A stretch of 64,000 nucleotides of DNA from Dictyostelium discoideum (taxonomy: Eukaryota). The notes under the pieces are model-generated. The model saw only the letters and a program-made list of their open reading frames with translations, was not told the origin of the DNA and searched no databases. The translations under genes and the position numbers were made by a program. The stretch is taken from the NCBI GenBank assembly GCA_000004695.1, contig CM000152.2, positions 3,744,001-3,808,000 on the forward strand. Direction: 5' to 3'. Within the stretch, counting starts at the first letter, position 1; each line of letters begins with the position of its first letter. This document shows, piece after piece, positions 78 through 20,888 of the stretch.

Positions 78-2888
78 TTATTTTGATTTTAATATTTTCA
101 TTTTTAAAGAATTTTTATCTTTTGCAGAGAAATCAATAAAATCTATTAATAGATTTGATAATTCAAAATTTGATGAATTTATTGATTTGACAACTATATC
201 ATTTAATAATTTTGAATCAAATAATGATGATTGATTTGATTTAGTTTGAATTTTTAATAAATATTTACTGTTTTGATCGGATGATATTATGTTTTTAAAT
301 ATTTGAGTGTAGCCTTTTTTAGATGCAATACAGAGACAATTATAAAGATAATTGATTGTATTATTATTTAGATTTTCAATAAAATAATTGATAAATAATT
401 CAAGGTAATAACTTGACGATATACCATATATACAATATTCATTTGTAAAAATTGAAAAATAATCAGGATTAAATAAAACCTCTGGTAATTTATCAAAAAG
501 ATAAATAATATCATCAACTCTATCTAAATTGTAAAGACAAACTAATAACATTCTGATTGAAATTGTAAAATTGAATGATTCTGTTTTACCAATAGTTAAA
601 CATCCAACATCTTTACTCTTTTTAGGTGATAAAAGATTTGCTGTGGTTGTTGTAGTTGTGGCTGTCAATGTAGTTGTGAGTTCAATTTTACTTTTAATTT
701 CTTCAAAGTTTTTATTATCAGTTTTTAAATTAATTACTTTTAACTTTGTTTCAATTGATTCTTTTGAAATATTATTAAATAAAAACTTGATAAAAGTTAA
801 CATTTTGCCTTTATATGGATTAAAACTAGATTCAAAAAATTTCAAATCCAATGGATGTTTTAATTGTGCATTTGATAAAAAGTTAATAATTGAATTTTCT
901 TTGTTATCTTTTATATTCAAATCAACTAGCCCTTCAAAAACAATATCAAAATAACCATCAAAACCAATTGAATATACCGATGGTTTTAAAATTGCTCTAT
1001 TTAATCGATCTAAAAAATTTTGATCAAACCAAGGAGTAAAATCTAATTTGCATCTTTTCCCAATACTATCCATTAAATATTCATAATGTTCAATAAGTTC
1101 TAATTGAATTTGTTTCCAAATTTCATTTTGATCATCAAATAATAAAGATTCGTCTCTGTAATTTTGAAAATAAAAGTCTAATATTTCTTTTTTATCGATA
1201 AGATTACAATAATTGCCTATTAATTTACCAATGTTAGGATATCTAGTTATTTTTTGTATTTTATTAGGTTGTTGCATTAATATTTTTAAAAAATAATCTA
1301 TTAGCTCTATATCATTACTTGAAAATACTGCTTTAAAAAATATATAATGATCATATTCTTTAAAAGTTTTCACATATTTATTATCTAAAACATTTGATAT
1401 TAATTCGAATTTTTCATTTTTTTCAATGTTTATATCTTTTAATATGCTTTGAAAAAATAATTGATGATCAAAACTTCTACCATTCCATTTATTGACAACA
1501 CGCTCATACATTTTATCTACACTTTCTTTTTTAAAATTTAAATAATAGAGTAATGGTTTTCTAAAAAACATTTCAGTTGCAGAATTGACTGTGCAATAGA
1601 AAAATAAACAAATTGATTTATAATATTTTTTAATAATTTCTTTTAAATTAATATTATTACTTGCTGTAGATGTTATTGTTAAATTGGGTGTTGAGGTTGA
1701 GGTTGAGGTTGGAGTGGTATGATTTAATAGATTTTTAATTGTTGAATTTAATTGATCATTTGTAAATTGTGATGTTTGTATTTCATTTAATTCTAAAATT
1801 ATTTGATTTAATTTTTCATAATACTTTATATTACTAGGATGTATTTTGATTTTTTCTTTTTGTTTTTGTTGTTCCATTCGTTCTTGTAAGTTTGTTGATT
1901 CTATTAATCTTTTATATGATTTTATTAGTTTTTTAAATTTATTATCGAATGAAAGAAATTTTGATAAATCGGTGCTAATGAATGGCAATAATGTATGTGA
2001 TGTTGGAAGACTATTAATTGATTTTAAGTAATTGTAAATTTTTAATTTATCATATGTAGTATTACCAAAAACCGATGGGTCAATATGAATTTTCATAACT
2101 TTTTTAATAACTTCTGAATCGATTTTAAAAAATTTAATAAATTGATCTAGTGCTGTAAAATTTACATGTCCAATCATTGCCTGAATCCATTTATCAATAT
2201 TTTCATCGAATTGAATAGTTGAAGAAGTTGATGTTGATGAATATCTTGAAAATAATAAATTATAAAATGATTTTGTTTTTTCATCATTTTTTTTAAATTT
2301 ATGAATAATATTGGCAATATTGATTTTATTTCTTATTATTTGATGATTATTATTACTTTTAATATTATCTATAATTATTTCCATTGAATTACTTGTGTCA
2401 TTTAAATAGGAACGATCACAACCTATTAAATCATAATAACCATATTGTTTATTTTTAAAATTTGAAAATATGTGTTTAAATATTACTATATTTCTAAAAA
2501 CTTTCCAAAAATAATTTTCAACTGGTTCAACATCTTTAAATGTTAATATATATTGTTTTTCTTGTGGTTGTGGTTGTTGTTGTTCCTCTTCTTTTTTTTC
2601 TTCTTGTTGATTGGTTTCATTATTTGTAAGATTGTTTTTTACTTTTTTTGATAAAAAATAACCTTCAATTCTATTATAGACTAATTGTTTTTTACCATTA
2701 CTTGCTAAACCTAATGATTTTGCAATTATTTGTAATTCTCTGTAATTTGTTGAACCACTGTCAAAATCTTTTTTAAACTTTTTATAAGTTAATAAACCAT
2801 TATCAATGCCATCACTATCATCATCATCATTGTCTTTTTCATGATGTCCATCAATAGTATCGATTTCTTTTCTTTTATTACTTATCAT
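78..2888 (-). CDS. SAP-domain protein, tandem paralog 1 (936 aa); Dictyostelium-type family of unknown function
   Basis: The 936-aa ORF is uninterrupted. Residues about 30-75 ([46 protein letters not shown]) fit the SAP motif. The protein is collinear with, and highly similar to, the ORFs at 3630..6581 and 7748..10420. The 3' flank (polyA plus ATCCTTGAATGGAAATTAATTTATT) is repeated after each copy. Confidence 0.7.
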
Positions 2889-3629: not shown

Positions 3630-6581
3630 TTATTTTGATTTTATTATTTTCATTTTTAAAGTATTTTTATCTTTTTCTGAGAAATCAATAAAATCTATTA
3701 ATAGATTTGATAATTCAAAATTTAATGAATTTATTGATTTGACAACTATATCATTTAATAATTTTGAACTAAATAATGATGATTGATTTGATTTAGTTCG
3801 AATTTTTAATAAATATTTACTATTATGATCGGATGATATTATGTTTTTAAATATTTGAGTGTAACCTTTTTTAGAAGCAATACAAAGACAATTATAAAGA
3901 TAATTGATTGTATTATTATTTAGATTTTCAATAAAATAATTGATAAATAATTCAAGGTAATAACTTGACGATATACCATACAAACAATGTTCTTTTGTAA
4001 AAATTGAAAAATAATCAGGATTAAATAAAACTTCTGGTAATTTATCAAAAAGATAAATAATATCATCAACTCTATCTAGTCTGTAAAGACAAACTAATAA
4101 TATTCTAATTGAAACTGTAAAATTGAATGATTCTGTTTGGCCAATAATGAAAAATCCAACATCTTCACCTTTTTTAGCTGATAAAAGATTTGTTGCGGTT
4201 GCTGTTGTTCCTGTTGTGGTTGTTGTTGTGGTAGTTGTTGTGGTTGTCAATGTGGTGGTGAGTACAATTTCACTATTAATTTCTTCAAAGTTTTTATTAT
4301 CAGTTTTTAAATTAATTACTTTTAACTTTGTTTCAATAGATTCTTTTGAAATATTATTAAATAAAAACTTGATAAAAGTTAACATTTTACTTTTATATCG
4401 ATTAAAACTAGATTCTAAAATTGGAGAAACATATAATGGATGTTTTAATTGTGCATTTGATAAAAAGTGAATAATTGAATTTTCTTTGGAGTCTTCCGTA
4501 TTCGAATCAATTAGCCCTTTGAAAATAAAATTAAAATTAAAATTAATAGTGCCACGAAAATCAAAATAGTATAAGAGTGGTTTTGCAATTGTTCTATTTA
4601 ATCGATCTAAAAATTTTGAACTATCAAACCAACGGAAAATATCAAAATTGCATCTGTTTCCAATACTACCCGTTAAATATTCATAATGTTCAATAAGTCC
4701 TAATTGAATTCGTTTCCAAGTTTGATTTTGATCATTAAATAATAAACATTCATCTCTGTAATTTTGAAAATAAAAGTCTAATATTTCTTTTTTATCGATA
4801 AAATGACAATAATCGCTTATTAAACTACCAATAACTGGGAAGGTAGTTGTTTCTGGTGTTTGATTGAGTTGTTGTTGCTTTAATATTTTTAAAAAATAAT
4901 CAATTAACTCTATATCATTACTTGAAAATACTGCTTCAAAAAATATATGAAGATCTTTTAATTTAAAAGTTTTCACATATTTATTATTTAAAACATTTGA
5001 TATTAATTCGAATTTTTCATTTTTTTCAATTTTTATATCTTTAAATATTCTTTGAAAAAATAATTTATGATCAAAATTACTACCATTCCATTTTTTGATA
5101 ACATGCTCATACATTTTATCTACCCTTTCTTTTTTAAAATATAAATAATAAAGTAATGGTTTTCTAAAAATAGTTTTATTTGCTGAATTAATTGTGAAAT
5201 AAATAAATAAATAAATTGATTTATAATATTTTTTAATAATTTCTTTTAAATTAATATTATTGTTGTTATTGTTAGTGCTGCTGTAATTACTTTCTGTAGA
5301 TATTATTGTGAGATTGGTTGTTTTTAATGATGTTGAGGTAGAGGTAGAGGTTGAGGTATATGTAGATGTAGAGGTTGAGGTTGAGGTTGAGGTTGAGGTT
5401 GGAGTGGTATGATTTAATAATTTTTTAATTGTTGAATTTAATTGATAATTTGTAAATTGTGATGTTTGTATTTCATTTAATTCTAATATTTTTTGATTTA
5501 ATTTTTCATAATACTTTTTATTAGGATGTATTTTAATTATTCCTTGTTTTTCTAGTTGTTCTTGTTGTTCTTGTAAGTTTGTTGATTCTATTAATCTTTT
5601 ATAAGATTTTATAAGTTTTTTAAATTTATTATCGAATGAAAGAAGTGTTGAAAAATTGATGCTAATAGTTGATAATAATGTATGTGATGTTGGAATACTA
5701 TTAATTGATTTTAAGTAATTGTAAATTTTTAATTTATCATATGTAGTATTACCAAAGAATGATGGATCAATATGAATTTTTATAGCTTTTTTAATAACTT
5801 CTGAATCGATTTTAAAAAATTTAATAAATTGATCTAGTGCTGTGTAATTTACATTTTCAATCATTCTTTGAATCCATATATCAATATTTCCATCGAATTG
5901 AATAGTTGAAGGTAGTTGTGTTGATGGTGAAGTTGATGTAGATGAATATCTTGAAAATAATAAATTATAAAATGATCTTGTTTTTTCATCGTTTTTTTTA
6001 AATTTATTAATAATGTCTATAATATTGCTTTCATTTCTTATTATTTGATGATTATAGCTTTTTATATTATCTATAATTATTTCCATTGAATTACTTTTTC
6101 CATTTAAAAGGATTTCATCACAACCTATTAAATCATAATAACTGTATTGTTTACTTTTAAAATTTGAAAATATGTGTTTAAATATTACTATATTTCTAAA
6201 TATTTTCCAAAAATAAATTTCAACTGGTTCAACATCTTTAAATGTTAATATATATTGTTTTTCTTGTGGTTGTGGTTGTTGTTGTTCTTTTTTTTTTTCT
6301 ACTTGTCGATTGGTTTCATTATTTGTAAGATTGTTTTTTACTTTTTTTGATAAAAAATAACCTTCAATTCTATTATAGACTAATTGTTTTTTACCATTAC
6401 TTGCTAAACCTAATGATTTTGCAATTATTTGTAATTCTCTGTAATTTGTTGAACCACTTTCAAAATCTTTTTTAAACTTTTTATATGTTAATAAACCATT
6501 ATCAATGCCATCACTATCATCATTATTTTTTTCATGATGTTCATTAATAGTATCGATTTCTTTTCTTTTATTACTTATCAT
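3630..6581 (-). CDS. SAP-domain protein, tandem paralog 2 (983 aa)
   Basis: The 983-aa ORF starts [12 protein letters not shown] like copy 1. It carries the same SAP-like block [29 protein letters not shown]. Its T/S-rich and T-rich low-complexity stretches are expanded relative to copy 1. Confidence 0.7.
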
Positions 6582-6679
6582 TTTTGTTAGAAAAATAAAA
6601 TAAAATTTTTAATTGTTTGATTGGTTTCAAAATTATGGAAAAAAAAAAAAAAAAAAAAAGAGCCTTGTTGGATATTTTT

Positions 6680-6960
6680 TTTTTTTTATTTTGGTGTTAT
6701 GAAAAAGTTAATTAATTTTTGGGCAAGATATTATTTTTTTTTTTTGGTGTTGTGAAAAAATTAATGGTGTTTTTTTTATTTTTTTTTTATTTTGGTGTTA
6801 TGAAAAAATTAATTGATTTTTGGGCAAGACATTATTTTTTTTTTTTTTTTTTTTTTTTTTGGAGTTATGAAAAAATTAATAGCATTTTTTTTATTTTTTT
6901 TTTTTTTATTTTTTTTTTTTTTTTTCTTTTGGTGTTGTGGAAATATTAATTGATTTTCGG
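6680..6960. repeat. minisatellite, about 5 copies of an about 60-bp unit (TTTTGGTGTTATGAAAAAATTAAT...[23 protein letters not shown])
   Basis: The core ttggtgttatgaaaaa(a/g)ttaat recurs at about 6691, 6745, 6790, 6850 and 6930, separated by T-runs. It is absent from the equivalent spacer between copies 1 and 2. Confidence 0.7.
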
Positions 6961-7607
6961 GCCAGATATTAATTTTTTTCTAATTTTATTTCAGAAAACA
7001 CAAATTCAAAATGTAAAAATGTTTTTATTTTTTTTATTTTTTTTTTATTTTTTTTTCTTTTTTATTTTTTAATTTATATTTTTTTTCTACAACATAATGA
7101 AAATTGCCAACACAAAATTTTATTTGAAAAATGGCGTGTAATAAAATAATATTGTTGTCCGCATCTAAGATGCAATAAAAGATTTGTTAGCTTGAGAGAT
7201 TTAAACAACCTTTGTGATAATATACAATTATATATTTGTCTTTTGTGTGAATTTATAAATTATTTTTTAAAATGATATATTGATACATTTTTTCCTTTTT
7301 TCTTTTTGTTTTTTATTTTTGAAAGAATTTTTTATAGCTTTTGTAAAAAAAAAAAAAAAAATTTGTTTTGTTTTAATTTTTTATTACTAATAATAAAATT
7401 CAAAAATAAAAAATAATCAATTGTGCACTTAGTATTGAATGAACGCTTTTCCAAATCGCAATTATTATTATAGCTTCTTTCTATTGGGAATTGGCGATAT
7501 TTTTGGTCTGAGCAATTCAGAAGACTTGCCATTAGGATTACATGATTTTGTACTTGGTCCAACATATTCAAAATTATACGAGCATTTAATTTTATTAATA
7601 AAATTTA

Positions 7608-7660
<53 letters not shown>

Positions 7661-7747
7661 TATATATACACTGTAAATATATCCTAGATTTTCAAATATT
7701 TAAAAATGGAAATCAATTTATTATTAAAATTTTTTATTGTATTCTTG

Positions 7748-10420
7748 TTATTTTAATTTTAATATTTTCATTTTTAAAGTATTTTGACCGTTTGCTGAGA
7801 AATCAATAAAATCTATTAATAGATTTGACAATTCAAAATTTAATGAACTTATTGATTTATCAACTATGTCATTTAATAGTTTTGAATCAAATAATGATGA
7901 TTGATTTGATTCAGTTTGAATTTTTAATAAATATTTACTGTTTTGATCGGATGATATTATGTTTTTAAATATTTGAGTGTAACCTTTTTCAGATGCAATA
8001 CAAAGACAATGATAAAGATAATTGGTTGTATCATTTAGATTTGCAATAAAATAATTGATAAATAATTCAAGGTAATAACTTGACGATATACTATATATAC
8101 AATATTCTTTTGTAAAAATTGAAGAATAATAAGATTTTAAAAAAACTTCTGGTAATTTATCAAAAAGATAAATAATATCATCAACTCTATCTAGTTTGTA
8201 AAGACAAACTAATAACGTTGTAATTGAAATTGTAAAATTGAATGATTCTGTTTTACCAATAGTTAAACATCCAACATCTTCACTTTTTTTAGGTGATAAA
8301 AGATTTGTTGCGGTTGTCAATGTAGTGGTGAATTCAATTTTACTATATTTTTCTTCAAAGTTTTTATTATCAGTTTTTAAATTAATTACTTTTAACTTTG
8401 TTTCGATTGATTCTTTTGAAATATTATTAAATAAAAACTTGATTAAAGTTAACAATTTGGCTGCATATGGACTAAAACTAGATCCTAAAATTTCCAAATC
8501 CAATGGTTGTTTAAATTGTGCATTTGATAAAAAGTTAATAATTGAATTTTCTTTGTTGTTATTTATATTCGAATCAATTAACCATTTAAAATCACTACTA
8601 CTACCACCAAAATCAATAGAATATACCAATGGTTTCATAATTGCTCTATTTAATCGATCTAAGAAATTTAAATTTTTATACCAATAAATAAAATCTAATT
8701 TGCATCTGTTTCCAATACTACCCGTTAAATATTCATAATGTTCAATAAGTTCTAATTGAATATATTTGCAATTTTCATTTTGATCATTAAATAATAAACA
8801 TTCATCTCTGTAATTTTGAAAATAAAAGTCTAATATTTCTTTTTTATCGATAAGATGACAATAATCGCATATTAATTTACCAATGCTTGGATATTTTGTT
8901 ATTTCTGGTATTTGATTAAGTTGTAATTGTTTTATTTTTTTTAAAAAATAATCTATTAACTCTATATCATTACTTGAAAATACTGCTTTAAAAAATATAT
9001 AATGATCATATTCCCTAAAAGTTTTCACATATTTATTATCTAAAACATTTAATATTAATTCGAATTTTTCATTTTTTTCAATGTTTATATCTTTTAATAT
9101 GCTTTGAAAAAATAATTTATGATCGAAACTACTGCCATTCCATTTATTGACAACACGCTCATACATTTTATCTACACTTTCTTTTTTAAATTTTAAATAA
9201 TAAAATAATCCTTTTCTAAAAACCCCTTTATTTTCAGGTTTAACTGTAAAATAAAAAAATAAATAAATTGATTCATAATATTTTTTAATAATATCTTTTA
9301 AATTAATTTTATTGTTGCTGTTGATGTTGTTGTGATTGTGATTGTTATTGTTGTTGTAGTTGCTTTCTGTAGATATTATTGTAAGATTGGTTGTGGTTGT
9401 TGTTGTGGTTGTTGTTATTGAAGTTGAGGTTGGAGTGGTATGATTTAATAAATTTTTAATTGTTGAATTTAATTGATCATTTGTAAACTGTGATGTTTGT
9501 ATTTCATTTAATTCTAATATTTTTTGATTTAATTTTTCATAATACTTTTTATTATTAGGATGTATTTTCAATTTTCCTTGTTTTTCTTGTTGTTCTTGTT
9601 GTTCTTGTAAGTTTGTTGATTCTATTAATCTTTTATATGATTTTATAAATTTTTTAAATTTATTATCGAATGAAAGAAATATTTCTAAATCGGTATTAAT
9701 GAATGGTAGTAATTTATGTGATGTTGGAAGACTATTAATTGATTTTAAGTAATTGTAAATTTTTAATTTACCATATGTAGTATAACCAAAGAATGATGGT
9801 TTAATATGAATTTCCATAACTTTTTTAATAGCTTCTGAATCGATTTTAAAAAATTTAATAAATTGATCCAGTGCTGTACAATTTACATTTTTAATCATTC
9901 TTTGAATCCATTTATCAATATTTTCATCGAATCGAATAGTTGAAGATAGTTGTATTGGTGAAGTTGATCCTGACGAATATCTTGAAAATAATAAATTATA
10001 AAATGATCTTGTTTTTTCATCATTTTTTTTAAATGTATGAATAATGTCTATAATATTGCTTTCATTTCTTATTATTTGATGATTATTATTGCTTTTAATA
10101 TTATCTATAATTATTTCCATTGAATTAGTTCTGCCATTTAAAAAAAAGATTTCATCACAACCTATTAAATCATAATAACCATATTGTTTACTTTTAAAAT
10201 TTGAAAATATGTGTTTAAATATAAATATATTTCTAAAAACTTTCCAAAAATAAATTTCAACTGGTTCAACATCTTTAAATGATAATATACATTGTTTTTT
10301 TTGTTGTTGTTGTGGTTGTTCTTCTTTTTTTTTTTCTTGTTGATTGCCATTATCATGATTATAGTCTTTTTCATGATGTTCATTAATATTATCGATTTCT
10401 TTTCTTTTATTATTTACCAT
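7748..10420 (-). CDS. SAP-family tandem paralog 3 (about 890 aa), lacking the SAP segment
   Basis: The listed ORF 7748..10570 begins in poly-K translated from an A-run. The first ATG in a believable context gives [18 protein letters not shown], with cat at 10418-10420 on the plus strand. The protein is collinear with copies 1 and 2 except for an in-frame loss of about 65 residues that removes the SAP motif. Confidence 0.65.
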
Positions 10421-10823
10421 TTTTAAAAGAAAAGAAATTTTAGTTTGATTTTGTTTTAAAAAAAAAGCCTTGTCGAAAGTTATTGTTTTTTTATTGTAAA
10501 CGGTGCAAATTCGAACTTTCAAAAGTTTTTTCAATTTTTTTTTTTTATTCATTTTTTTTTTTTTTTTCATTTTCTTTTTTTCCCCACCGATAATAATAAC
10601 GGATAATAACTTTTAATATATTAATTACAACCTTTATACTACAGTTTTTTTTTTTGTCTACTAAAATCATTGATGATTTTAAAACAATAGCTTTCAACTA
10701 TTGTAAAGGGTGTGACCCTCCAGTCTCGGGTGATCATGATATCGAAAAAAAAAAAAATTCATTACAATCTTTTGTGTAAACTCTCATCTTAAAGCGAACA
10801 AACAAACCACAAGTTTATAAAGT

Positions 10824-12240
10824 TTAAATAAAATTGGAAATAGTATTTGTAGTGGTGTTGAATAGAGAAAACAGTAGAAAAGCTAATTCGCATCTTTTTC
10901 CAATACTACCCATTAAATATTCATAATGTTTAATAAGTCCTAATTGAATATTTTTCCAATTTTGATTTTGATCATTAAATAATAAACATTCATCTCTGTA
11001 ATTTTGAAAATAAAAGTCTAATATTTCTTTTTTATCAACAAGACGACAATAATCTCCTATTATTTTTAGTCTTTGATTATTAAGTTGTTGTTGTTGTAAT
11101 TGCTTTATTTTTTTAAAAAAACAATCAAATAAATCTACATCATTACTTGAAAATATAAAAAATATATATAAAAATATATAAAAAAAAATGATTATCACTA
11201 ACTTGCAATGGTTTCCATTTGATTTTATCAAAACAATTTGATATTATTCTAATCTCTCATTTTTTTCAATGTTTATATCTTTTAATATGCCTTGAAAAAA
11301 TGATTGATGATCAAAATAAATACCATTCCATTTATTGATAACACCTTGATACATTTTATCTACCCTTTCTTTTCTAAAATAAATAATAGTATATTGGCTT
11401 TCTAATATATCTTTTATATAATTGAACTGTGCAATTAAAAAATAAACAAATTGATTTAATATATTTTTTAATAATATTAATTTTGTTGTTGTTTTCTTCT
11501 GTAGTTATTGCCGTTGAAGTCGAGGTTGAGTTTGGGGTTGAGGTTGAAGTTGTAGTGGTAAGTTATATAATAAATTTTAATTGTTGAATTTAATTGATCA
11601 TTTGTAAATTGTGATGTTTGTATTTCATTTAATTCTAAAATTATTTGATTTAATTTTTCATAATACTTTTTATTATTAGGATGCATTTTTAAATTTTCTT
11701 CTTGTTTTTGTTGTTCTTGTTCTTGTAAGTTTGTTGATTCTATTAATCTTTCATATGATTTTATAAGTTTTTTAAATTTATTGTCGAATGAAAGGAATCC
11801 TTGTAAATCTGCATTAATGAATGGTAATAATATATGTGATGTTGGAAGACTATTAATTGATTTTAAGTAATTATAAATTTTTAATTTGTCATATTTAGAA
11901 CTACTATAGAAAAAAGGATTAATATGAGTTTCTATAACTATTTTAATATCTTCTGAATTGATATTAATAAAATTAATAAATTGATCTAGTGCTATGCAAT
12001 TTACACTTTCAATCATTCTTTTAATCCATATATCAATATTTTCATTGAATCGAATAGTTGAGGATAGTTGTGTTGATGGTGAAGTTGATGTTGATTAATA
12101 TCTTGAAAATAATAAATTATAAAATGATCTTGTTTTTTCATCATTTTTTTTAAATTTAATAAAAATGTTGATAATATTTCTTTCATTTCTTATTATTTGA
12201 TGATTATTATTACTTTTAATATTATCTATAATTATTTCAA
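10824..12240 (-). pseudogene. decayed, truncated fourth copy of the SAP-family gene
   Basis: ORF fragments 10824..11231 ([51 protein letters not shown]) and 11477..12016 (ALDQFINF...[23 protein letters not shown]...[30 protein letters not shown]) match the middle of the paralogs in different frames. A further collinear stretch runs to about 12240. The C-terminal roughly 300 codons and the N-terminus are missing. Confidence 0.6.
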
Positions 12241-16316: not shown

Positions 16317-19300
16317 TTATTTTTTTCCACCTTTTTTCTTGACATTAGTGAAAGAGGTTGGTCTTGCACCTTTACGTTTATTAAGAGCCTTTGGATCCAA
16401 TTTGATATAAGAATATGGTTCGAATTTTTGATCTCTCTTACGATTATCACCTTTGGTTTTAGCTACAGTTTTAGTACTCTTATTGTCACGATCTTGATAA
16501 TTTACTAAATGATCAACACCTCTAACTCTGTTATAACGAAGGGTAGCAGTTTCAATACGACCTTCATTTTTATTATTATTATTAGTAGTACGAGTTGATT
16601 TAACTGATTTAGCGCCACCCATGACTGATTTAGCACCACCACCACCACCACGAACAGATTTAGCATTTGTTCTTCTTGTGAAATTTGATTTAAGATCATC
16701 ATTATAACGTGAAAGATTTTCATCGATATCATCATCTGAATAATCTGAATTATCATGATTATCTTGTTTGAATTTATTTTTGAGACCTTTTGCTTTAGTG
16801 ACATGATAACCTGCTTTTCTTTCATAGGCTTCTTCATTCTCTTCGAAAACTTGATCGAGGAAGGATTTCTTTCTCTCTCTCTTTCTCTTTTGACCTTCAT
16901 CTTCAGAATCTGATGATTCAATAATCATACGACCATCTTCATCAAGTTGGAATGGATTTTGAAGTTTACCACCATTCTTTGCGGCTTTAGCAAACATTTG
17001 TTTTGCAACGATATCAGCGGCTGCTTTTGCTGACAAATGACTAAATGCATTTCTATCCAAGAAATCAATTGGATCTTCACCCTCTTTGATGAGGAAATTA
17101 TCTTTAGTATCTTTTTTAGTTTTCTTTGGTTTAACATTGAAAAGGAATTCCTCAATATCAGCATCATCTTCACTATGATCCCTATCACTATGCTCTTCAT
17201 CTGATGCTAACATTTGTTCATCATCATCATCACCACCACCACCAGAAGTATTCTTTGATTTTTTATTCTTTTTACTTTTTTGTGATTTACTATCATCACC
17301 ATTTTCATCCATATTTTCATTTGAATCAACACCACCGCCATTTCTAGATAATTCTTTAGCTTTTTCTTTCTTTTCATTCTTTTTACGAATGTTTGTAACT
17401 ACTTTTTTGAAATCTTCAGGTACTAATTGATAAATTTGATCGAAACCAAATCTTTTAATTAAACGTTCTAAAAGGATTTGAACGATAGTTCTAAAGTAAT
17501 TCTTATCGATACCACCCCATTTTGCTAAACCATTGACGAGTACTTCCAATTGAGATTCGATTGATTTTGTGTCTTTAAAAGTTGCAATTACAACACGAAC
17601 TAAACCAAACACTGCTTTTACAATCTCTCTATGTGGTGATGCTAATAACACAAGTACAGTTGTAACCAATTGACCGACAAACTCTTCATTGATATCACGA
17701 TAGAATTCATGAATGACTCTAGCGATTGAAACAATTGATGCTGATACCATATGTGGAGTAATCGATGCTAAACCTGCCATCATCAATTGTAAATATTCAT
17801 GAATTGCTTCGTTATGAGCGATGGTGATTGTATCCTCCATTGATACACCTTTCTTTGGTTTCACTAATTTTGCAGAGATTAAACACATAACTTTACCAAT
17901 TTCAATGATTAATTCATTTGCAATCTCTCTACATTTAACATTAGTTTCTTTTGTACATAAAATAATCTCTGGAATTAATGACGGTATAAATTTAGTTTTT
18001 AATTGTACCCAACCAATATTAACTTTAACTTTTGGTTTATTATCTGTACTTGTAGTTGTAGTAGTAGTTGTTGTTGTAGTAGTTGTAGTAGTTGTAGTAG
18101 TATTTTCTAATTGTTTTTCATTTTCATTAATAGCAACTAATTCTAATTCTTCTTCAGTTAATAAATGTTTATTATATGAAGATTTAGTTAAGGAGATAAT
18201 AATTTCTCTTAAACATTTTAAACGAGTTTTCTTAATTGTTGATGGTGATTGCATTAAATTACTAACTAATAATGCTTTAATCTTTGTTAAATTTTGAAGA
18301 ATAAAACTTTCATGATATTCACAAATCTTTACTAAAATCTTATAAGATCTCTTTTGTAAACCTGGATCAGAACATTTCAATTGTGGTTTAATAATTTTAT
18401 ATAAAACTTTAATATTCTCTTCATCTAAATGTTTAACGAAACCAATTGTTAAATCTGTTAAATAATATTTCTTTGTTTTTTCTTTTGGTGTGGTGGTTGT
18501 AGTAGTTGTAGTTGTAGTATCCATTGAATTTTGAGTTGGTTTCTTTTCAATACCTTCTAAAGTTAATGCTTCAACTAATTTTGTAATTAATGAATTAAAA
18601 ATTGTATTTAAATTTATAGAATCAGTGATTGAAACCAATGCTTCAATTGCATTTAAAATGTAATAACGTTGATCTTGATTTGAAGTTGGGAAAATATTGA
18701 AAAGAATTGGTAAATAGTTTTTAGAGAATACTGAAACCGATTTCAATAACTGAGTAGCTCTTTCTTGAGTGACTAAATGATGTTGTTTTCTTAATGGTAT
18801 GTAAACTGGTGGTTTAGTGATTTGAGTATCCTTTAATTTATTGATCATTTGTGTTAATGCTGCACAAATTACAATACGTAATCCTGGTTCATCGGATAAA
18901 GCAACACCCAAATTACGAGCAATCACTCTAAATGAAACGTCTGAATCCAATGGATGATTTAAAAAGCCTGGTAATAAATCCCAAACTTGTGAATATAATA
19001 TCTCCAAATTCTTTGCTTCAACTAATCTACCATCCATTTCAACTTGTTTACCTCTTTCTTTCATTGCAATTGCCATTGGATAAAAATATTCAATGAAAAA
19101 TGATAATTGGGTATATTTAATATTATCTCTCATTAAAGGTAATAACCAATTTCTATTAATTTTAATTTTGCTTTATAATTTAAAAAAAAATAATAATAAA
19201 TTAATATAAATTATTATTATAAATTAATTAAAAATTATTTTTAATATTATTAATAACCTACTCATTTGGATGAGATTCTAAATTTAATGGTAAAATTTTT

Positions 19301-19835
19301 AAGAAATTCTTTGGACCAATTGAAGATAAAACTTGAATGAAAACTTGACGACAATGAGTTTGGAAATGAAATTCTGGTGAATGATATAATTGATCTAAAC
19401 CAGCCAATGTATTATTCATAATTGGATAAGCATTTGGTCCTAATTGTTCAAATAATGCACTAATGATCATTAATACTAAATCCCATGATGATTTAAATGT
19501 TAATCTTAAACCACTTTCAATGGTTGAAATAATTGATTCCAATGGTGATAATTCTCTATTTGCATTTCCTGAACCTTGTTGGAATGAATAAATACCTTGT
19601 TGAATTACTTCCAAATTTATACATTCATAAATTACTGATTTAAATCCATTCATTGTACATTTTGTAATCTCTGCTTTATCAGATCCAAAATTATTCATTA
19701 AAATTGAAAAATATTTATGAACATGTTGATTACATAATTTTGGTTCCAATCTATAAAAAAAAAAAAAAAAAAAAAAGGGAGGGGAGGGGAGGGGAGGTGA
19801 GGTGAGGTATATATTAGTATATAAATTATTATTAT

Positions 19836-19871
<36 letters not shown>

Positions 19872-20888
19872 TTACTTTACAAAATATAAATAAGATTGAG
19901 TTAATAATTCAGTATAAGAAACAGTTGATTTATAATCAATACCTGATGGTGGATGTTGAAATAATACTTCAATTAATTGTTGAATATGTGAACCAATTAA
20001 TGGATTAGTTTTAAAGAATAATGAACCGATTGCTTTATAACAAGCAATGGTTAATGGTGAATTTGAAAGACTTGTTAATTTTATGATATCTTCCAATAGT
20101 AATGAGATCAATGATGGTGGTAATAAACATAATGCTTCAGTGACGATATTCAATGCATAGAATGCAGTACCCATAGTTTCATGAGTAACATTTGTAAAGA
20201 TTTCATGAGAGAATTGGGATGTAACATTTGCCAAATGTTTATGTACGCCACCACCCTTTGCATTGGTTTGAATTGCACCAATACTATTTAAAACCAATAT
20301 AACTTGTTCTGCGGCTTTTTGACGAATTTTAGATTGTTGATTATTAACTGATAATTTCAAAATGTATGAATAACCTCTTAAATATTCTGGTGTTGACCAT
20401 TGATTTGATTCTGCCAATACCAATACATATCCCAATATATAAGTACCTGATTTAACTAATGATTGTTCATCATTTGACATTGTTGAATTTAATGTTGTCT
20501 CTTGAGTAACATATTTCTCCAATATATTAATCATTTGTAAAATAATATTTACTGATTGATTTTTAATAATTGGAATTGAAACTCTATATAAATCAAAATA
20601 TATATATTAATATAAATATGTATTTGAAATAATAATAATAATAAAAATTACATACTGTGGTAAAATTAAAGAAAATAATTTTAATAAATCTGGTGTTTGA
20701 TTTTCTTTATGTTTATTTTCTGTAATAGTTTTTAATATGATTGCAAAGTATGATGTAGCATTGATTGGTGCTTTATTGAATCTAATTAAATCTGTTACTG
20801 CTGTCAATACTGCATATAATCTTTTATTGGTTTCGGAACTTGAGTTTTCACGTAAACTTGGAAATAATTCTGAAATTGTTTTTGACAT
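16317..20888 (-). CDS. rrp12: RRP12-like pre-ribosomal export protein (HEAT/ARM type, NUC173-like region), 4 exons
   Basis: The CDS is join(20888..20656, 20583..19876, 19750..19262, 19152..16317) on the minus strand. Donors are GTATGT, GTAAGT and GTAGGT; acceptors are tatatag, tttatag and ttaatag. All phases are consistent. The block LIPEIILCTKETNVKCREIANELIIEIGKVM plus HEAT-like repeats and an acidic/KK-rich C-terminal tail resemble RRP12. The N-terminus reads MSKTISELFPSLRENSSSETNKRLYAVLTAV. Confidence 0.55.
19777..19808 (+). other. G-quadruplex-type G-run GGGAGGGGAGGGGAGGGGAGGTGAGGTGAGG inside intron 2 of the RRP12-like gene
   Basis: The sequence is read directly. It is flanked by A22 and T50 homopolymers. 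Confidence 0.6.

Follow-up and report, generated by a model that had tools for sequence, protein, structure and literature searches.

We analyzed a 64,000-nucleotide stretch of Dictyostelium discoideum DNA (contig CM000152.2, positions 3,744,001 to 3,808,000; hereafter, the window), which exact protein matches identify as strain AX4, and characterized a tandem array of UPF0746 genes in which the third copy lacks the SAP domain carried by copies 1 and 2. The window has a base composition of about 20% G+C, and its coding sequences contain runs of poly-N/Q/T. The four array copies in the window are encoded on the minus strand. Copy 1 (78..2888) encodes a SAP-bearing protein of 936 amino acids that matches XP_641028.1/Q54UV9 exactly; it is DDB_G0280787, and the public name of Q54UV9 is "SAP DNA-binding domain-containing protein," UPF0746 protein DDB_G0280787. 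Copy 2 (3630..6581), likewise SAP bearing and 983 amino acids long, was delimited by its open reading frame (ORF), protein alignment, and Pfam. Copy 3 (7748..10420), the SAP-less member, has 890 codons plus a stop and is an exact match to XP_641030.2/Q54UV7 (DDB_G0280811). Its sequence is publicly named "hypothetical protein / UPF0746 protein DDB_G0280811" (890 amino acids), and this public model begins at the same MVNNK start. Upstream of copy 3, tblastn and ORF fragments revealed a fourth UPF0746 copy (10878..12226), a degenerate pseudogene in which only residues ~174 to 617 are recognizable, split over several frames, with neither an N terminus nor a C terminus.

Full-length body homology, with E = 0 in phmmer and profile searches, places copy 3 within UPF0746. 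Its body of about 820 residues is 81% identical to that of copy 1 with the conserved blocks intact in the protein alignment, and identity to the bodies of copies 1 and 2 together is in the range of 81 to 82%. Compared with DDB_G0280787, copy 3 has the same NKRKEID leader and lies in the same tandem locus, but it is devoid of the 61-residue SAP domain carried by copies 1 and 2, by other D. discoideum paralogs, and by D. dimigraforme relatives.

A first-pass annotation of this DNA had claimed that copy 3 lost the SAP motif by an in-frame deletion of about 65 codons. We confirmed that the difference is genomic, that it removes SAP, and that it amounts to a net 65 to 67 codons; the N-terminal sequences quoted for the three copies were exact, and the interval assigned to the change (10225..10420, minus strand) covers, according to ORF and alignment, the first 65 codons of copy 3 (to FWKVF) and holds the deletion junction. 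When the three N termini were aligned, as had been suggested, copy 3 showed a single 68-column gap with conserved sequence on both sides (MxxNKRKEID.I..HHEK upstream and NQQEKK downstream); across this gap of the three-way protein alignment, copy 1 has 68 residues and copy 2 has 66. Chance is no concern for this gap because the flanking paralogs are 81 to 82% identical.

An 18-member family alignment, combined with a check of the DNA coordinates, placed the break as DNG/NQQ (a slash marks the break here and below). In copy 3, the junction joins GATAATGG to CAATCAACAAG at 10346..10347 on the minus strand, and the codon of Gly25, GGC, spans it; the sequence runs ...CATGATAATGG/CAATCAACAAG... across window positions 10347/10346, in the codon reading CAT GAT AAT GG/C AAT CAA CAA G. 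In copies 1 and 2, 183 nt each lie between identical flanks, ...GATAATGG and CAATC(A/G)ACAAG. The copy 1 segment (2614..2796, minus strand) encodes L32 to T92, which, judged from the coordinate check and the helices of an AlphaFold2 (AF2) model, is the whole folded SAP module; the equivalent copy 2 segment (6313..6495, minus strand, by the same coordinate check) is identical to it at 181 of 183 positions. Thus, the deletion comprises 61 codons (L32 to T92 of copy 1), is in frame, and creates the GGC glycine at the junction. The D/N-rich run immediately before the deletion varies in length as well: copy 3 differs there by 6 codons from copy 1 and by 4 from copy 2, and the runs of copies 1 and 2 are likewise not the same. 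Affine-gap pairwise DNA alignments gave colinear flanks, with the gap split by an arbitrary placement of the retained TAATGG; when the 5' regions were aligned with MAFFT instead, low-complexity A/T sequence caused the start of copy 3 to be misplaced. As for the origin of the breakpoints, microhomology was considered and rejected: recombination through the ATAATG repeat found close to each breakpoint would yield DNETNQQ, and DNGNQQ is observed.

By Pfam matches, profile matches to the PDB, and an AlphaFold model, the lost module is, at the level of the family, a SAP domain. A SAP motif spans ~35 residues, with a conserved Gly-containing loop between two amphipathic helices, and we used the Pfam models PF02037 (SAP) and PF18953 (SAP_new25). 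With SAP_new25, the full-length proteins of copies 1 and 2 scored 21.6 and 21.4 bits, respectively, and the isolated copy 1 segment scored 25.9 bits, relative to a gathering cutoff of 26.3 bits; Pfam SAP E values were 0.015 for the full protein and 3.6e-4 for the isolated segment. All close family segments (10/10) matched both models, with best E values of 1.4e-9 for SAP_new25 and 1.2e-7 for SAP, and in a wider set including D. purpureum, 11 of 13 and 10 of 13 segments matched the two models. A comparison of the wider-set profile with the PDB retrieved rice SIZ1 (2rno_A; E value, 3.7e-6) and Hcc-1 (2do1_A; 0.009), with ERI1, Ydc2, and DEK lower. Within the family, the SAP segment is the slower part of the protein: its nonsynonymous divergence (dN) was 0.17 to 0.19, versus 0.27 to 0.28 for the body, both measured to D. 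dimigraforme.

Structural prediction pointed in the same direction. The AF2 model of copy 1 residues 26 to 95 (predicted local distance difference test [pLDDT] score of 78.8) has helices at positions 10 to 16, 24 to 33, and 42 to 67 and shows the expected order of helix, Gly-Lys-Lys loop, and helix. Its nearest folds in the PDB were almost all SAP domains, namely, those of DEK (nucleosome), PIAS1, ERI1, E1B-AP5, Ku70, Hcc-1, Tho1, SF3B2, and FAN1, and several of these superposed on the model with a root mean square deviation of 1.1 to 1.8 Å. In the AF2 model of full-length copy 1, the only folded elements predicted before residue 117 are helices at 35 to 43, 49 to 58, 67 to 79, and 81 to 88. 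Since all four lie inside L32 to T92, the deletion would remove the module cleanly and join two low-confidence linkers. Copies 1 and 2 share with known SAP domains (2rno, 2do1, PIAS1 1v66, Tho1 1h1j, Ku70, and DEK) the predicted succession of helix, extended G-x-K loop, and helix, with scores just under the Pfam cutoffs, whereas copy 3 has none of the module. Indeed, copy 3 gave no SAP match in Pfam at an E value of ≤1 and none with the family SAP profile, and it does not have the helix-extended loop-helix fold, the entire folded segment being absent.

We compared the array with those of two other D. discoideum assemblies (L001 and L002), D. dimigraforme (L003), and D. cf. discoideum (L004). 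Of the four D. dimigraforme copies, three have a SAP domain at the same position, as do both D. cf. discoideum copies and the D. discoideum paralogs P0007-9 (49 to 50% identical). Besides, it was present in the D. purpureum proteins P0015, P0016, P0018, and P0022, with 21 to 37% identity to copy 1 across the segment. Because SAP is present in these outgroups, the condition of copy 3 is, judged from its distribution, a loss of SAP and not a gain. In a neighbor-joining tree of the body, the SAP-less orthologs of AX4, FIW, and FIR grouped together at 100% bootstrap, and this copy-3 clade fell among SAP-bearing D. discoideum copies. We relied on the tree only for its clades at 100%, one of copy-3 orthologs and the other of D. 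dimigraforme copies; it poorly resolved how copies 1, 2, and 3 and the D. cf. discoideum copies are related, and the deepest rooted nodes had 0 to 12% bootstrap, partly as a result of comparing a rooted tree with unrooted replicates. The identical junction in all three orthologs implies that the deletion occurred once, before the AX4, FIW, and FIR lineages diverged. Synonymous divergence (dS) was about 0.106 among the copy-3 orthologs and about 0.135 to 0.18 to the nearest SAP-bearing paralogs. On these sequence distances, the deletion postdates the split from the nearest SAP-bearing paralogs and predates the AX4/FIW/FIR divergence.

We also observed a dS of about 0.1 between the array copies of AX4 and those of GCA_054859355.1 and GCA_054859385.1, all of which are labeled D. 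discoideum. This seems high for conspecific D. discoideum strains. Possible reasons are a deep divergence of the lineages behind the two assemblies or a lack of strict orthology between the array members.

Three other explanations of the short N terminus would make the loss only apparent or would reverse it. It is hardly credible that the junction is an assembly or sequencing artifact of the AX4 reference. Tandem paralogs within A+T-rich DNA are hard to assemble, a consideration with nothing specific to this site, but the identical junction is present in the two other D. discoideum assemblies GCA_054859355.1 and GCA_054859385.1, and the ACTFIT-tagged protein P0004 has the same N terminus as AX4 copy 3 with few residues different. 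The insertion of SAP into copies 1 and 2, with copy 3 as the ancestral short form, is just as implausible. The near-identity of copies 1 and 2 across the segment (181/183 nt) is as expected from a recent spread; this near-identity, however, extends from about -80 to +370 and is better explained by local gene conversion, and the outgroups (D. dimigraforme, D. discoideum paralogs, and D. purpureum relatives) have SAP at the same position, which refutes an insertion. It is very improbable, too, that the copy 3 product keeps SAP via an unrecognized exon or an alternative start. In AX4, the copy 3 frame does continue upstream without a stop for another 50 codons, as far as an ATG at 10570, but this extension (10421..10570, minus strand) has no SAP similarity, and strain comparison identifies it as an A-rich, noncoding 5' leader: the ORFs of L001 and L002 begin precisely with the methionine of MV(N/Y)NK, a stop lying directly upstream, and the upstream regions differ from that of AX4 by indels. 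In pairwise DNA alignment, copy 3 was colinear with copies 1 and 2 over the 5' untranslated region, the start codon, and the first ~19 codons; copies 1 and 2 each encode SAP in a single uninterrupted exon. The reading frame runs straight through the copy 3 junction, without a GT...AG intron, and no candidate exon lies between copy 3 and the upstream pseudogene. When the SAP segments of copies 1 and 2 served as tblastn queries against the 64 kb, with the low-complexity filter off, matches were obtained only inside those two copies. The first-pass annotation had named a spliced-in SAP exon as the result that would overturn its claim; none was found within the 64-kb window, and the hidden-exon reading is effectively refuted there.

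An alternative of a different kind accepts the loss and takes copy 3 as a young pseudogene or nonfunctional duplicate, with the SAP deletion as its first lesion. We regard this as unlikely, though it has considerably more in its favor than the three explanations above. Copy 3 lies in a tandem array beside the clearly degenerate fourth copy, and the family turns over rapidly: fragments and copies with frameshifts were seen in each strain that we examined. On the other side, the copy 3 ORF is intact, with 889 to 906 codons, in three assemblies that differ by ~140 to 150 substitutions, and the several indels present among the orthologs are all in frame; a frame of ~890 codons has thus been kept open at a dS of ~0.1 where A+T-rich stop codons arise easily. 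Nei-Gojobori dN/dS ratios among the copy-3 orthologs were 0.42 to 0.44, significantly lower than 1 (binomial P values versus neutrality of 2e-5, 9e-6, and 2e-3) and no higher than in SAP-bearing copies, the closest of which gave between-strain ratios of 0.44 to 0.60. In Tajima relative-rate tests with three outgroups, copy 3 was not accelerated relative to copies 1 and 2 or orthologs (P = 0.14 to 1.0); the sole P value of <0.05 was obtained against FIW_up with dimi_c as the outgroup, and FIW_up was the faster copy there. Furthermore, about 70 nt of the copy 3 5' leader is conserved between strains and is similar to the corresponding part of copies 1 and 2. By contrast, the neighboring fourth copy is visibly decayed. 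Because the moderate purifying selection on its intact ORF matches that on its SAP-bearing sisters, copy 3 is most likely a functional member of the family.

We consider it probable that copy 3 descends from a SAP-bearing ancestor, lost SAP through a single deletion, and was retained as a functional member without it. Following duplication in the tandem UPF0746 array, one 183-bp in-frame genomic deletion removed the whole folded SAP module (residues 32 to 92 of copy 1) and joined a disordered acidic leader, with its N-terminal basic motif NKRKE, to a Q/E/K-rich linker and the ~820-residue, predicted all-alpha body; copy 3 still has both this motif and the linker. The deletion took place before the AX4, FIW, and FIR split (dS, ~0.1), and the ORF has been kept under moderate purifying selection since. 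Our data demonstrate the deletion itself, its polarity and age, the SAP identity of what was lost, and the constraint on what is left.

The SAP domains of SAF-A/B, PIAS, Ku70, DEK, and Tho1, several of which are among the structural neighbors listed above, mediate contact with nucleic acid or chromatin. The SAP domain of copies 1 and 2 most likely has this role as well, and the copy 3 product would, by analogy with other SAP proteins, be without the family's nucleic acid or chromatin contact module. We infer that SAP may tether UPF0746 proteins to DNA or chromatin and that the copy 3 body may work untethered, as the first-pass annotation had proposed, or differently targeted. Like domain-loss paralogs in general, copy 3 shows a clean, domain-bounded, in-frame excision with the rest retained under selection. 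That it acts as a dominant negative, a mode also raised in the annotation, is speculation. The constraint on copy 3, as estimated from sequence divergence, fits a working SAP-less protein and says nothing on its mode of action.

Several points weigh against this interpretation. Nei-Gojobori estimates are rough in a genome of 78% A+T, and the whole family is fast evolving (dN/dS, 0.4 to 0.8), so that the constraint is only moderate. AX4 copies 1 and 2 individually fall just below the Pfam SAP gathering cutoff, and none of the Foldseek E values of the SAP-like model (0.4 to 3) is individually significant for so small a domain. DNA binding by the UPF0746 SAP domain is assumed by analogy. No expression or protein evidence was obtained for copy 3, and a literature search on UPF0746 and four DDB_G identifiers found no paper mentioning the gene or the family. 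Besides, the body has no recognizable homolog or fold beyond a generic alpha-solenoid. It is predicted to be all alpha and has no significant sequence or structural relative outside the family; the full-length AF2 model of copy 1 has a pLDDT of 61, and a Foldseek search of the PDB with this model returned only generic alpha-solenoids (karyopherins and pentatricopeptide repeat proteins; template modeling score, ≤0.2; E value, ≥0.008). In Pfam searches with the full proteins, no match to the body was found, apart from a weak Ank_5 match near the C terminus of copy 3 with an E value of 0.004, below the cutoff.

Copy 3 is not the only SAP-less member of the family. A D. dimigraforme paralog of 926 amino acids (L003:6879-9656) has lost SAP via a different deletion with different breakpoints, and the remnants ...KKEIDYSEEI and MMDNLTSSEQKK flank its gap. 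In this gene (region 6650-7250), the original start has been lost and a new start, MMDNLTSSE..., is used in the ORF, with KKEIDYSEEI now in the leader. Since the paralog groups with SAP-bearing D. dimigraforme copies at 100%, its loss of SAP is independent of that in copy 3. It showed no significant rate acceleration in Tajima tests, and both recent SAP-less copies have an intact body and a rate equal to that of their SAP-bearing neighbors.

An exhaustive profile search of 1.84 billion representative proteins yielded only 29 clusters at an E value of ≤0.001, and all 10 of the distant relatives looked up were D. purpureum proteins, belonging to a large and very divergent expansion. Among the D. 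purpureum proteins, SAP is present in P0015, P0016, P0018, and P0022 and absent from the gene models P0023, P0024, P0025, P0027, P0031, and P0033 (the last named "expressed protein"), a count that rests on the N termini as given in those models. UPF0746 thus appears, on the basis of these searches, to be a family restricted to Dictyostelium that is arranged in tandem arrays, turns over quickly, and sheds SAP repeatedly. It is possible, although we consider it doubtful, that SAP-less copies are a recurrently selected component of the arrays, forming a tethered/untethered pair in which they modulate, compete with, or relocalize the SAP-bearing activity.

The array itself also varies. L001 and L002 have an extra upstream SAP-bearing copy starting with MVKNKRNEMD. 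Between about -80 and +370, counted from the ATG (2520-2970 and 6210-6660), copies 1 and 2 share 97 to 99% identity, compared with 84 to 93% over most of the rest, and dS values are 0.029 in the SAP segment and 0.156 in the body; this pattern looks like a local gene conversion tract over the SAP-coding region. The copy-3 ortholog is followed directly on its 3' side by a transposase gene in both other D. discoideum assemblies (L001:12993-14500 and L002:13032-14079), of the rve/rve_3 type in one assembly and of the DDE_Tnp_4 type in the other, and the AX4 counterpart of this site is only a 1.1-kb intergenic spacer (window positions 6582-7747). The array is flanked by an RRP12-like HEAT-repeat gene (16317-20534, minus strand), as judged from its ORF sequence and from a Pfam RRP12 match in the D. 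dimigraforme neighbor, and the position and orientation of this gene relative to the array differ between AX4 and D. dimigraforme. Scans for tRNA genes and Rfam families around the array gave no matches, and a repeat search between copy 3 and the fourth-copy pseudogene found only poly-A/T low-complexity sequence.

In other respects, what happened to copy 3 is a routine domain loss after tandem duplication, a familiar process, and public annotation already lists both DDB_G0280787 (as SAP containing) and DDB_G0280811 (as hypothetical). Only the independent recurrence of SAP loss might merit follow-up. Taken together, copies 1 and 2 with SAP and copy 3 without it form a natural domain-deletion series in a Dictyostelium-restricted, fast-evolving family, and a comparison of DDB_G0280787 with DDB_G0280811 would directly test the role of SAP.

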